Source: Escherichia phage JeanTinguely. From it: a stretch of DNA of 39,842 bases. The notes beneath the pieces were generated by a model that worked only from the letters and a program-made list of their open reading frames with translations, had not been told where the DNA came from and made no database searches. Positions 5,678-12,089 of this stretch are shown piece after piece. How positions within the stretch are numbered: the first letter of the stretch is position 1; each line of letters opens with the position of its first letter. Position numbers and translations under genes: made by a program. The stretch lies in sequence record MZ501081; one strand, given 5' to 3'.

Positions 5678-6754
5678 GTGAACATCACCGACATCATGAA
5701 CGCTATCGACGCAATCAAAGCACTGCCAATCTGTGAACTTGACAAGCGCCAAGGTATGCTCATCGACTTACTGGTAGAGATGGTCAACAGCGAAACATGC
5801 GATGGAGAGCTAACCGAACTGAATCAGGCACTTGAGTTTCAAGACTGGTGGACTACCTTGAAGTGTCTCACGGCTGACGCAGGGTTCAAGATGCTCGGTA
5901 ATGGTCACTTCTCGGCTGCTTATAGCCACCCGCTGCTGCCTAACAGAGTGATTAAGGTGGGCTTTAAGAAAGAGGATTCAGGCGCAGCATACACCGCATT
6001 CTGCCGCATGTATCAGGGCCGTGCCGGTATCCCTAACGTCTACGATGTACAGCGTCACGCTGGATGCTATACGGTTGTACTCGATGCACTGAATGATTGT
6101 GAGCGTTTCAACAATGATGAACATTATAAATACGCTGAGATTGCAAGCGACATCATTGACTACAAATCAGATGAGCACGATGGGCTAACTGGGTGGGATG
6201 GCGAGTTCGTCGAGACTTGCAAGCTAATCCGCAAGTTCTTTGAGGGCATCGCTTCGTTCGACATGCACAGTGGGAACATCATGTTCGATGATAATGATGT
6301 ACCATACATTACCGACCCTGTATCGTTCTCGCAGAAGAAAGGTGGTTCGTTCAGTATTGACCCTGAGGAACTCATCAAGGAAGTCGAGGAGGTCGCACGT
6401 CAGAAGGAAATTGACCGCGCTAAGGAACGTAAAGCACGCCATGTTGGTCGATTGGAGGCACGCAGATTCAAACGTCGCAACCGCAAGGCACGTAGAGTAC
6501 ACCAAGCGAAGCGCGAGAGAATGCTTGCTGCGTGGCGAATGGCTGAACGTCAAGAACGACGTAACCATGAGAGAGCTGTAGATGTACTAGGAAGAACCGA
6601 TAACGCTATGCTCTGGGTCAACATGTTCGCTGGGGACTTTAAGGCGCTTGAGGAACGAATCGCAGCGCACTGGTGTAAAGCTGACCGAATGGCTATCGCT
6701 AACGGTCTTCCGCTTAACATCGACAAGAAACTTGACGCAATGCTAATGGGCTGA
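5678..6754 (+). CDS. 0.7: Ser/Thr protein kinase and host transcription shut-off protein (gp0.7), 358 aa
   Basis: GTG start after RBS ggaga; [28 protein letters not shown]... colinear with T7 gp0.7, including the Arg/Lys-rich C-terminal shut-off region. Confidence 0.95.
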
Positions 6755-9482: not shown

Positions 9483-9505
9483 TTAATACGACTCACTATA
9501 GAGGG
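9483..9505 (+). promoter_or_regulatory. T7 RNAP promoter phi1.1A
   Basis: taatacgactcactatagaggga. Confidence 0.8.
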
Positions 9506-9557: not shown

Positions 9558-9580
9558 TTAATACGACTCACTATAGGGAA
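9558..9580 (+). promoter_or_regulatory. T7 RNAP promoter phi1.1B
   Basis: taatacgactcactatagggaac. Confidence 0.8.
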
Positions 9581-10142: not shown

Positions 10143-11159
10143 ATGATGAACATTAAGACTAGCCCGTTTAAAGCAGTGTCTTTCGTAGAGTCTGCCATTA
10201 AGAAAGCTCTGGATAACGCTGGGTATCTTATTGCTGACATTAAGTACGATGGTGTGCGTGGTAACATCTGCGTAGACAATACTGCTAACTGCTGCTGGCT
10301 CTCTCGTGTGTCTAAAACGATTCCGGCACTGGAGCACTTAAACGGATTCGATGTTCGCTGGAAGCGTCTGCTGAACGATGACCGTTGCTTCTACAAAGAT
10401 GGCTTTATGCTCGATGGGGAACTCATAGTCAAGGGCGTGGACTTTAACACAGGGTCTGGCCTACTGCGCACCAAGTGGCTCAACAAGAATAACTTTGAGT
10501 TCGACGTTGGCGGTGTACCTCCGCTCAAGGGGTCCAAGGTTGAGTTCGCGTTGGACACCAAACGTCTGAGTGTCAAACTGTACGCTATCCTCCCTCTGCA
10601 CATCGTGGAGTCTGGTGAAGACTATGATGTCATGACGTTGCTCATGCAGGAACACGTTAAGAACATGCTGCCTCTGCTACAGGAATACTTCCCTGAAATC
10701 GAATGGCAAGCGGCTGAATCTTACGAGGTCTACGATATGGTAGAACTACAGCAACTGTATGAGAAGAAGCGTGAAGAAGGCCATGAGGGTCTCATTGTGA
10801 AAGACCCGATGTGCATCTACAAGCGAGGCAAGAAGTCCGGCTGGTGGAAACTTAAGCCTCTTGAGGAAGCTGACGGCATCATTCAAGGTGTAAACTGGGG
10901 AACAGAAGGACTTGCTAACGAAGGTAAGGTAATTGGATTCAAGGTGCTTCTTGAGACTGGTCGTCTTGTCGATGCCAATAACATCTCTCGCGCCTTAATG
11001 GATGAATTTACAGATAACGTTAAAGAACATGGCGAGGACTACTATAATGGGTGGGCTTGCCAGATTGGATTTATGGAGGAAACACCTGATGGCTCACTAC
11101 GTCACCCGTCCTTCACCTGCTTCCGAGGAACTGAGGACAATCCGAAAGAGAAAGTATAA
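10143..11159 (+). CDS. 1.3: ATP-dependent DNA ligase (gp1.3), 338 aa
   Basis: MMNIKTSPFKAVSFVESAIKKALDNAGYLIADIKYDGVRGN... contains the ligase adenylation motif KYDG; start set at the MMNIKT ATG as in T7 (the ORF track starts 15 nt earlier). Confidence 0.93.
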   Translation: MMNIKTSPFKAVSFVESAIKKALDNAGYLIADIKYDGVRGNICVDNTANCCWLSRVSKTIPALEHLNGFDVRWKRLLNDDRCFYKDGFMLDGELIVKGVDFNTGSGLLRTKWLNKNNFEFDVGGVPPLKGSKVEFALDTKRLSVKLYAILPLHIVESGEDYDVMTLLMQEHVKNMLPLLQEYFPEIEWQAAESYEVYDMVELQQLYEKKREEGHEGLIVKDPMCIYKRGKKSGWWKLKPLEEADGIIQGVNWGTEGLANEGKVIGFKVLLETGRLVDANNISRALMDEFTDNVKEHGEDYYNGWACQIGFMEETPDGSLRHPSFTCFRGTEDNPKEKV

Positions 11160-11559
11160 GTATAACCCTGCGGCTCCTTCTGGAGTCGTTTCCGCCTCTG
11201 GTAAACCAATAGGTTACAAGCGGAAAGATGGGTATTGGCTACTTTCTTATGGAGGAAAGCATGTACTTGCACACAGGGTTGTCTGGATGCTTAACTTCGG
11301 TGTCATACCTGAGGGAATGGTGATAGACCACATTAACAGAAACCCTAGCGATAACCGAATAGAGAATCTTCGAGTAGTAACTCAATCAGCTAACCTAATG
11401 AACGTAGGCGTCCGGTCTCACTGTAGGAGTGGAGAGAAGTTTATCTCCCTTGATGTGAGAACCGGACGTTTTTCCGTTCGTATCAGGAGAAAATCCTATG
11501 GCACATATGGTACTCTCGAAGAGGCTATAGCTGTGCGCGATGCTAATACGACTCACTAA
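11089..11559 (+). CDS. HNH endonuclease with C-terminal AP2-like DNA-binding domain, about 156 aa (start inferred)
   Basis: HNH core HRVVWMLNFGVIPEGMVIDHINRNPSDNRIENLRVVTQSAN plus AP2-like RTGRFSVRIRRKSYGTYGTLEEAIAVRD; RBS ggagga 8 nt before ATG 11089; overlaps the last 71 nt of the ligase gene in another frame. Confidence 0.7.
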   Translation: MAHYVTRPSPASEELRTIRKRKYKYNPAAPSGVVSASGKPIGYKRKDGYWLLSYGGKHVLAHRVVWMLNFGVIPEGMVIDHINRNPSDNRIENLRVVTQSANLMNVGVRSHCRSGEKFISLDVRTGRFSVRIRRKSYGTYGTLEEAIAVRDANTTH

Positions 11560-11566
11560 AGGAGGT
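11544..11566 (+). promoter_or_regulatory. T7 RNAP promoter phi1.5
   Basis: taatacgactcactaaaggaggt; overlaps the last codons and stop of the HNH ORF. Confidence 0.8.
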
Positions 11567-11573
11567 ACACACC

Positions 11574-11663
11574 ATGATGTACTTAATGCCATTACTCATT
11601 GTCATCTTAGGATGCCTTGCGCTTCACTATACTGACGATGATATGCCAGATGGTCACGCTTGA
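11574..11663 (+). CDS. 1.5: gp1.5 homolog, 29 aa
   Basis: MMYLMPLLIVILGCLALHYTDDDMPDGHA, near-identical to T7 gp1.5 as recalled. Confidence 0.6.
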   Translation: MMYLMPLLIVILGCLALHYTDDDMPDGHA

Positions 11664-11686
11664 CGACACCACTAAGGAGATACCTT

Positions 11687-11803
11687 ATGATGTACTTAAT
11701 GCCACTACTGATGCTATTCTTGGTGTCATTACTCATTCTCATCCCTGTATATGCTGTACTGCGTGATGATGACGATGATGACACACAAGATGACCACGCT
11801 TAA
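11687..11803 (+). CDS. Second gp1.5-like paralog, 38 aa
   Basis: MMYLMPLLMLFLVSLLILIPVYAVLRDDDDDDTQDDHA; the first 8 codons match gene 1.5 at the DNA level; preceded by actaaggagatacc, a degenerate copy of the phi1.5 promoter/RBS. Confidence 0.5.
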   Translation: MMYLMPLLMLFLVSLLILIPVYAVLRDDDDDDTQDDHA

Positions 11804-11823
11804 TACGACTCACTAAAGGAGGT
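11801..11823 (+). promoter_or_regulatory. T7 RNAP promoter phi1.6
   Basis: taatacgactcactaaaggaggt, identical to phi1.5. Confidence 0.8.
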
Positions 11824-11828
11824 ACTAT

Positions 11829-12089
11829 ATGTTTCGACTTCATTTCAACAAAAGCATTAAGAGTTTCACGGTTCGCCGTGCTGACCGTTCAATCGTATGT
11901 GCGAGCGAGCGCAGAGCTAAGTTGCCTCTTATTGGCAACACAGTTCCTTTGGCACCGCGCGTCCACATCATTATCACCCGTGGTGACTTTGAGAAAGCAA
12001 TAGACAAGAAACGTCCGGTTCTTAGTGTGGCAGTGACCCGCTTCCCGTTCGTCCGTCTGTTATTCAAACGAATCAAGGAGGTGTTCTGA
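11829..12089 (+). CDS. 1.6: gp1.6 homolog, 86 aa
   Basis: [31 protein letters not shown]... matches T7 gp1.6. Confidence 0.8.

Follow-up and report, generated by a model that had tools for sequence, protein, structure and literature searches.

An apparent tandem duplication of gene 1.5 with a decayed middle promoter copy in Escherichia phage JeanTinguely

In phage T7, one gene 1.5 is located between the promoters phi1.5 and phi1.6, and a second open reading frame of this kind is not present there. Production of T7 gp1.5 from pBAD33 inhibits E. coli growth in minimal medium, its toxicity is relieved by stringent-like RNA polymerase alleles, and gp1.5 showed no interaction with RelA, SpoT or RpoZ (PMC13483052). 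In the outgroup phage T3, gene 1.5 is likewise single and of like design, and phi1.6 is absent. Closely spaced promoter copies are represented in these phages by the tandem pair phi1.1A and phi1.1B, located at 5848 and 5923 in T7 and at 9484 and 9559 in the genome studied here. In the literature, no description of a second gene 1.5 copy was found.

The window analyzed here is the whole 39,842-nt stretch of JeanTinguely DNA, and it represents an entire genome of the T7 group (Teseptimavirus). Over its first 25 kb, it shares 97-98% identity with two BASEL phages, EmilieLinder (Bas103) and AnnaIndermaur (Bas104), and ~92% with T7 and others. A scan with the T7 promoter pattern returned 16 sites on the + strand, compared with 0 expected by chance. 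A preliminary description of this DNA had proposed three successive units in the gene 1.5 region: phi1.5 with gene 1.5 (unit 1), a degenerate promoter copy with a second small ORF (unit 2), and an intact phi1.6 (unit 3). Its statement of the T7 gene order was correct, and the positions and sequences that it gave for the promoters, gene 1.5 and the second ORF were reproduced in our analysis (Table 1). To our knowledge, the genes of T7 are all transcribed from one strand. Minus-strand ORFs in the region (e.g. 11602-11784, 60 aa) were set aside, since the genes annotated here in the T7-group records examined correspond to the + strand of the window only. An Rfam scan of the region gave no match at E≤1, no terminator-like sites were found in it, and its sigma-70-like sites were at chance level only.

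Table 1 Features of the gene 1.5 region (positions in the 39,842-nt window).
Feature	Coordinates	Strand	Evidence
phi1.5, T7 RNA polymerase class II promoter (-17 to +6)	11544..11566	+	One mismatch to consensus pattern; aligns with annotated T7 phi1.5
Gene 1.5, 29 aa, MMYLMPLLIVILGCLALHYTDDDMPDGHA	11574..11663	+	ORF list; phrog_12128 E=1e-20 full length; orthologue of annotated T7 gene 1.5
Putative decayed promoter copy TGACGACACCACTAAGGAG and leader; remnant in full TGACGACACCACTAAGGAGATACCTT	11661..11686	+	70% identity to phi1.6 and leader; opposite T7 phi1.6 in alignment
ORF 1.5b (name given here), 38 aa, MMYLMPLLMLFLVSLLILIPVYAVLRDDDDDDTQDDHA, apparent diverged gene 1.5 paralogue	11687..11803	+	ORF list; homology z≈10; intact in 7 genomes
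Internal repeat copy B1, codons 1-8, MMYLMPLL	11687..11710	+	22/24 nt identical to gene 1.5 5' end
Internal repeat copy B2, codons 9-16, MLFLVSLL	11711..11734	+	18/24 nt identical to gene 1.5; 26/36 when extended
Asp codon run (GAT/GAC), length polymorphic	11765..11782	+	Genome alignment
phi1.6, T7 RNA polymerase class II promoter	11801..11823	+	One mismatch to pattern; repeat with phi1.5; multiple alignment
Gene 1.6, 86 aa, BC10 family, downstream boundary of duplicated region	11829..12089	+	Pfam PF06726 5.9e-23; phrog_1777; annotated as gene 1.6 in T7

Promoters of T7 RNA polymerase are expected to resemble the 23-bp consensus TAATACGACTCACTATAGGGAGA, and candidates were judged with weight on positions -12 to -5 and on the AT-rich stretch from -17 to -13. 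Both outer promoters, at 11544 and 11801, conform to this consensus with 1 mismatch each. Transcription from phi1.5 would start at the G at 11561, which is 13 nt 5' of the gene 1.5 ATG in both the window and T7, and the GGAGG transcribed from this promoter is also the Shine-Dalgarno sequence of gene 1.5. For phi1.6, the start would be the G at 11818, and the first 3 nt of the promoter (TAA) form the stop codon of the second ORF. The two promoters had been called identical, and they do share 25 nt (11544-11568 = 11801-11825). In the window, Bas103, Bas104 and vB_EcoP_SYGE1, phi1.6 reads GGAGGTAC and is phi1.5-like at +5/+6, whereas the same position reads GGAGACACTATATG in all phages with one gene 1.5 copy, the otherwise universal form being GGAGACAC. 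This difference suggests that the reading GGAGGTAC may have resulted from a later conversion from phi1.5.

The protein encoded by gene 1.5 in the window is hydrophobic in its N-terminal segment and closes with an acidic tail (…DDDMPDGHA). Among 27 sampled orthologues from Teseptimavirus, mutual identity is 76-100% (median 86%). The N-terminal octapeptide MMYLMPLL is nearly unchanged in almost all gene 1.5 orthologues.

To measure the relatedness of the second ORF, named 1.5b here, gene 1.5 was compared with unit 2 by local DNA alignment, with both intact promoters left out. The alignment score is 31.5, versus 10.8 ± 2.1 for shuffled sequences (maximum of 22 in 2000; z≈10), and the observed score was reached by 0 of the 2000 shuffles. 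The repeat is thus real beyond the promoter consensus and, taken with the repeats visible across the region, this alignment supports the earlier proposal of a tandem duplication of the promoter-plus-gene 1.5 unit with a degenerated middle promoter. In a permutation test of the two proteins for similarity beyond block composition, the observed value was reached in 0 of 5000 permutations for the full length and in 0.9% for the offset body. The 3' ends of the two genes are 75% identical over 28 nt, and both finish with CACGCTT plus a stop codon. All three units had been described as led by CACGCT; this is true of units 2 and 3 (CACGCTT), but GCGATGC, from the 3' end of an HNH ORF, stands before unit 1. 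The shared D(G/D)HA ending that had been noticed was also recovered, at the close of the Asp-rich tails …DDDMPDGHA and Asp6-TQDDHA. BLASTP of gene 1.5 against 1.5b produced no alignment, and 1.5b did not match the phrog_12128 profile at E≤0.1. Membership of the gene 1.5 family by descent is indicated by the DNA similarity together with the shared slot between phi1.5 and gene 1.6. As judged from these comparisons, 1.5b is a diverged paralogue by descent and not a profile-level member of phrog_12128.

Unit 2 had been said to open with a degenerated promoter and ribosome-binding site. In agreement with this, the stretch 11663-11689 matches phi1.6 and its leader at 70% identity, MAFFT alignment sets the remnant opposite phi1.6 of T7, and the middle copy went undetected at up to 3 mismatches in the window scan that returned the 16 sites. 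In the register given by its GGAG, the middle copy (11661-11683) is mismatched to the T7 promoter consensus at -8, -6, -5, -4 and -3, and four of the five positions in the AT-rich -17 to -13 stretch are off consensus. Substitutions at -8 and nearby abolish T7 RNA polymerase promoters in studies of promoter variants, and because of this the middle promoter is predicted to be dead: the changes that it carries should abolish its activity. The first 3 nt of the remnant are the gene 1.5 stop codon (TGA), and the sole promoter part kept is the Shine-Dalgarno sequence AAGGAG (11674-11679), located 7 nt before the 1.5b ATG. A promoter of the T3, K11 or SP6 type was ruled out by eye, as the remnant needs indels to align with these and all 16 promoters of the genome are T7-type.

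The second copy differs from the first in its layout. It consists of an 8-codon N-terminal block, followed from 11711 by a diverged, full-length gene 1.5 body. Gene 1.5 and 1.5b had been reported to have the same first 8 codons, and all 8 do encode the same residues (22/24 nt); however, the likeness is not confined to this block, since the rest aligns at an 8-codon offset (26/36 nt from 11711). The best local alignment pairs the start of gene 1.5 with 11711 and not with the start codon of 1.5b. Of the two internal repeat copies, B1 is nearly unchanged relative to gene 1.5, and B2 has drifted like the rest of 1.5b. From these alignments, B2 appears to be what was at first the 5' end of the duplicated gene and now lies within it, and B1 and B2 together constitute an in-frame 24-nt tandem repeat. 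This repeat and a longer Asp run explain why 1.5b encodes 38 aa and gene 1.5 only 29 aa, and the repetition of the 5' end explains the extension of the hydrophobic stretch from ~17 to 25 residues. The Asp run has 2 additional codons in Bas104 and reads DDDYDG in a related contig (ERR9710127).

The 1.5b product consists of a 25-residue hydrophobic helix, one Arg and the Asp6-TQDDHA tail. Residues 1-25 are hydrophobic, with 15-residue Kyte-Doolittle means of up to 3.1, and residues 4-29 form the only helix of an AlphaFold model (mean pLDDT 79), in which the acidic tail is unstructured. Single-pass membrane peptides are expected to have an unbroken hydrophobic helix at least about 20 residues long, and the modeled 1.5b peptide has a helix of this kind. 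The predicted product is a peptide that spans the membrane once and has a strongly acidic tail, i.e. a sibling of gp1.5 with a longer anchor.

The distribution of the second copy was assessed in phage records and metagenomic collections. In the genome alignment, T7 and CQ615 are without the extra unit of ~140 nt. This unit is carried by Bas103, Bas104, vB_EcoP_SYGE1, PDP351P2 and JacobBurckhardt (Bas65), the five of 50,697 phage records that were matched by blastn with unit 2 alone; the wider region matches 172 records. A sixth relative with unit 2, the 39.7-kb Logan contig ERR9710127, was found via its protein, so that with the window a total of 7 two-copy genomes were found. One copy is present in ~97% of the sampled T7-group records. 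In IMG/VR, 13 T7-group contigs have the one-copy spacing and 0 have the two-copy spacing. Exact-pattern scans of IMG/VR and the JGI metagenomes for unit 2 or a promoter pair spaced 220-250 nt gave no match, and no two-copy match was obtained from the JGI metagenomes. A single copy is accordingly the usual state and also that of the outgroup.

Searches with the 1.5b protein were similarly sparse. With the 40-aa version of Bas104 as query, a word search of 5.8 billion sequences found one orthologue, and HMMER against 1.84 billion representatives returned the same single orthologue and no other. A tblastn search of the phage records yielded nothing, probably through low-complexity masking. Neither profile nor structure libraries gave informative hits as to function. 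Nothing significant was found in Pfam, where a match to RSN1_TM was sub-threshold, and the weak PHROGs matches (E = 4e-4 to 0.02), to three families of unassigned function, were not taken as meaningful. In Bas103, Bas104, Bas65 and SYGE1, 1.5b is already annotated as a hypothetical protein.

These observations can be accommodated by a promoter-to-promoter recombination event. In an ancestor with the T7 order (phi1.5 / gene 1.5 / phi1.6 / gene 1.6), unequal homologous crossover would have taken place between the ~22-nt identical cores of phi1.6 and phi1.5, with either sister genomes or two co-infecting T7-group phages as partners, yielding the arrangement phi1.5 / 1.5 / hybrid promoter / 1.5 / phi1.6. 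As seen in the sequence, this promoter copy then lost its recognition elements through a 2-nt deletion in the AT-rich -17 to -13 stretch, a T to A change at -8 and shifts in -6 to -3, with the coding needs embedded in it being spared (the gene 1.5 stop, TAA to TGA, and AAGGAG 7 nt before the second ATG). The second copy gained the in-frame 24-nt tandem repeat of its own 5' end, by which the hydrophobic segment grew from ~17 to 25 residues, and its Asp run expanded as it diverged to 62-71% identity. We consider it probable, although far from certain, that the locus arose in this way, by unequal crossover between promoters followed by promoter decay and divergence of 1.5b, the latter being expressed from upstream promoters.

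Unequal crossover between promoters is expected to generate promoter-bounded units, and the units are indeed bounded by phi1.5, the remnant and phi1.6, with a one-copy outgroup in existence. The ATG-to-ATG period is 113 nt, compared with a phi1.5-to-phi1.6 spacing of 117 nt in T7. At the upstream junction, the CACGCTT at the gene 1.5 end adjoins the remnant exactly as it adjoins phi1.6 in T7. Downstream, the leaders are informative: that of phi1.6 is GGAG-ACACTAT-ATG in every one-copy phage, and those of phi1.5 vary (GTACACACC, ATACACACC, ATACACATA, ATACACCTT and others). The remnant leader ATACCTT, found in 6 of the 7 genomes, equals the phi1.5 leader ATACACCTT of N30, KKE5P and ESh6 minus two bases; in an assignment made on 7-9 nt, it scores 5 against this phi1.5-type leader and 1 against the best phi1.6 leader. 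The Bas65 leader, ACACCCT, fits the phi1.5 and phi1.6 types equally (3 vs 3). Unequal crossover in the shared promoter core would be expected to leave a hybrid whose upstream context is that of phi1.6 and whose downstream context is that of phi1.5. Promoter-mediated recombination, as suggested in the preliminary description, is plausible from this junction, and a crossover within the promoter core is moderately supported as its origin. The leader of unit 1 is T7-type and that of unit 2 is N30-type, and therefore the crossover may have been between two different co-infecting phages.

The duplication had also been called recent, and this part of the claim is contradicted by several observations. 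The 1.5b body is 62-71% identical to every sampled gene 1.5, as compared to 76-100% between orthologues; the copy contains an internal 8-codon repeat; the middle promoter is unrecognizable; and the 7 carriers of the two-copy arrangement differ by up to ~8% genome-wide. 1.5b has diverged further than the gene 1.5 orthologues have from one another, and to account for this, either change came in an early burst or the copy predates the sampled genus. In addition, neither the gene 1.5 tree nor the gene 1.6 tree groups the two-copy genomes as a clade, although both genes are short, mosaic sequences in which gain versus loss is not settled; a single gain therefore needs later spread by recombination, and otherwise losses have to be assumed. 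Both the low identity between the paralogues, which is below that of any orthologue pair, and the scattering of carriers in the local trees would be expected if the two-copy state were ancestral to the T7 group and most relatives had lost the second copy by deletion between direct repeats (either the promoter cores or the ends of the two genes, which are alike). T7 is well known to undergo deletions of this kind between short direct repeats. However, this would demand many independent precise losses, T3 has one copy and no phi1.6, one copy predominates in the T7-group records and is the state of all 13 IMG/VR contigs, and no chimeric 1.5/1.5b gene or deletion scar was seen in the 20 one-copy regions inspected; we regard an ancestral second copy as unlikely. 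A burst of change with later movement by recombination is favored over an old origin with many losses, given that T3 as outgroup has one copy, that the arrangement is rare and that neither chimeric genes nor scars were seen in the one-copy phages inspected. Alternatively, the second unit may have been captured from a co-infecting, distant T7-like phage by crossover of its phi1.5 with the resident phi1.6, such that 1.5b is a foreign allele. Its arrival in pre-diverged form would explain the large divergence without a burst, and the unit 2 leader is of the phi1.5 type of N30, KKE5P and ESh6 (GGAGATACACCTT), as opposed to the T7-type leader of unit 1 (GGAGGTACACACC). Nevertheless, no known phage has a 1.5b-like gene (MLFLVSLLILIPVYAVLR body) as its sole gene 1.5, neither among the HMMER representatives (one orthologue) nor among the blastn records (five two-copy phages), and the first 24 nt are almost identical to those of the resident gene. 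This origin involves the same promoter-to-promoter crossover and is thus a variant of the main explanation; a foreign source is, in our estimation, improbable to a similar degree.

Having no promoter of its own, 1.5b would be transcribed on class II mRNAs from phi1.5 and upstream promoters and translated from its own Shine-Dalgarno sequence; by inference, it would belong to the class II (middle) products, as a small membrane peptide with an acidic tail whose gene shares the phi1.5 transcript with gene 1.5. Its ORF is open in all 7 two-copy genomes, and the only indel within it is 6 nt long and in frame. By pairwise Nei-Gojobori comparison, pN/pS is 0.24 for 1.5b (7 genomes), equal to the 0.24 of its conserved neighbor gene 1.6, and 0.10 for gene 1.5, with pS of 0.08-0.11. 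Only one site varies among the 45 nt of the hydrophobic core (11711-11755). The AAGGAG sequence, its spacing and the 1.5b start codon are invariant across the two-copy genomes, while the adjacent promoter part has decayed; 1-nt indels are confined to the remnant, with none in the ORFs. These patterns suggest that 1.5b is likely to be coding and maintained, and they argue against a decaying, non-functional duplicate that is not yet broken and is carried between two needed promoters. Decay would be consistent with the nonsense codon that cuts the last 5 residues of 1.5b in SYGE1, with several tail substitutions in the ERR9710127 contig and PDP351P2, and with the fact that nearly all relatives live without 1.5b. 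Further, with 15 variable sites only, a test on synonymous versus nonsynonymous site counts revealed no significant departure from neutrality (p=0.13). On balance, we find simple decay very unlikely. It is also conceivable, although quite doubtful, that 1.5b has been neofunctionalized, with the doubled octapeptide and the longer poly-Asp tail turning a short, possibly peripheral anchor into a transmembrane peptide with a different host target or compartment, and with the death of the middle promoter being selected to tie the dosage of a toxic peptide to phi1.5. If so, one possibility is that 1.5b influences stress or envelope physiology of hosts with O-antigen, for instance the hosts on which Bas103 and Bas104 were isolated.

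The locus provides a small natural example of gene gain in T7-type genomes, in which unequal crossover can draw on the portable homology of many near-identical promoters, and in which a promoter copy made redundant decays while its embedded ribosome-binding site stays. The toxicity of T7 gp1.5 is the sole experimental lead to the function of these peptides. gp1.5 has recently been linked genetically to the host stringent response, and gp1.5 and 1.5b form a natural paralogue pair, comparison of which could help to define the parts of gp1.5 that matter. As an evolutionary event, the duplication is a modest and minor new case of a known process in a well-studied phage group, and it changes no current view.

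Among the described systems, T3 gene 1.5 (25 aa, MWLILFAIVATLGLMVADDNIWPDC) resembles gene 1.5 in its position between phi1.5 and gene 1.6 and in its product, a lone small hydrophobic peptide whose tail is acidic. A gene of the same design in the same slot indicates that both slot and design are old, although the T3 gene has no recognizable sequence identity to gp1.5 or 1.5b, is not followed by phi1.6 and has no second copy. The closest relative is T7 gene 1.5 itself (gp1.5, 29 aa; phrog_12128), with which 1.5b shares the genomic slot, the first 8 residues MMYLMPLL, a hydrophobic N-terminus, an Asp-rich tail ending in D(G/D)HA, a promoter GGAG that serves as Shine-Dalgarno sequence, and homology at the DNA level. 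In contrast to T7 gp1.5, 1.5b is 38 aa long, with an extra 8-codon repeat, a hydrophobic stretch of 25 versus ~17 residues, an Arg after the helix and six to eight Asp residues, and it is without the conserved Gly-Cys; it also has no promoter of its own and is missed by both phrog_12128 and BLASTP. For the promoters, the nearest parallel is the phi1.1A/phi1.1B pair, which like the phi1.5-phi1.6 region consists of two class II promoters in direct repeat at a short distance in the early/middle region, and which sets a precedent for local duplication of promoter-containing segments in such genomes. Whereas both phi1.1 promoters are active in T7 and enclose no duplicated gene, here the gene was copied as well, and one of the promoter copies is predicted to be dead.

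The leader of phi1.6 in the window is GGAGGTAC, which resembles that of phi1.5, and the same leader is found in Bas103, Bas104 and SYGE1. At this position GGAGACAC is present in T7, PDP351P2, Bas65, the ERR9710127 contig from Logan, and all 13 of the T7-group IMG/VR contigs with a single gene 1.5. A short stretch of gene conversion involving phi1.5 and phi1.6 appears to account for GGAGGTAC at phi1.6. In two other phages, the stretch separating phi1.6 from the stop codon of gene 1.5 partly repeats the first bases of the promoter, reading TAATATTCC|TAATACGAC in Serratia phage Pila (L010, ~1310-1335) and TAATACTTC|TAATACGAC in L019 (~590-610). These partial repeats are a further small rearrangement scar at phi1.6. 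The window genome also carries another direct-repeat promoter pair, the counterpart of the tandem phi1.1A/phi1.1B of T7.

Runs of Asp codons (GAT/GAC) in gene 1.5 and in its diverged second copy, 1.5b, differ in length among close relatives: the gene 1.5 run encodes DDD in the window and DDDD in Bas103 and Bas104, and the 1.5b run encodes D6 in the window and D8 in Bas104. This variation is consistent with slippage in short triplet repeats. In PDP351P2, the 1.5b tail is GATGGTCACGCT (DGHA) rather than GATGACCACGCT (DDHA), differing at codon 36, and is identical to the gene 1.5 tail; either an ancestral state has been retained or conversion has occurred between gene 1.5 and 1.5b.

In every gp1.5 orthologue translated (the window and loci L002-L026), residues 11-14 form a lipobox-like [IV][ILV]-G-C motif; the Cys is positioned unusually early and the usual positively charged n-region is lacking. 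The motif is absent from both 1.5b and T3 gp1.5.

Features in and around the gene 1.5 region, with window coordinates
Feature	Position	Details
T7-type promoter pair	9484-9505 and 9559-9580	spacing 75 nt
HNH homing-endonuclease ORF	11002-11559	likely start ATG 11090; Pfam HNH_3 at 3e-20; phrog_99
gp1.5 residues 10-14	11601-11615	
Gene 1.5 Asp-codon run	11634-11642	
1.5b Asp-codon run	11765-11782	
1.5b codon 36 (equivalent)	11792-11794	
phi1.6 leader	11818-11825	

The early terminator TE, which T7, N30 and the ERR9710127 contig all have, was found nowhere in the window with up to 3 mismatches allowed. The HNH ORF lies between the ligase gene, whose 3' end it overlaps in a different frame, and phi1.5, which contains its stop codon (…ACTCACTAA). 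In T7 this slot is occupied by gene 1.4; related HNH ORFs are located here in CQ615, Bas102 and Yep_15, and Bas65 likewise has a homing-endonuclease gene at this position.
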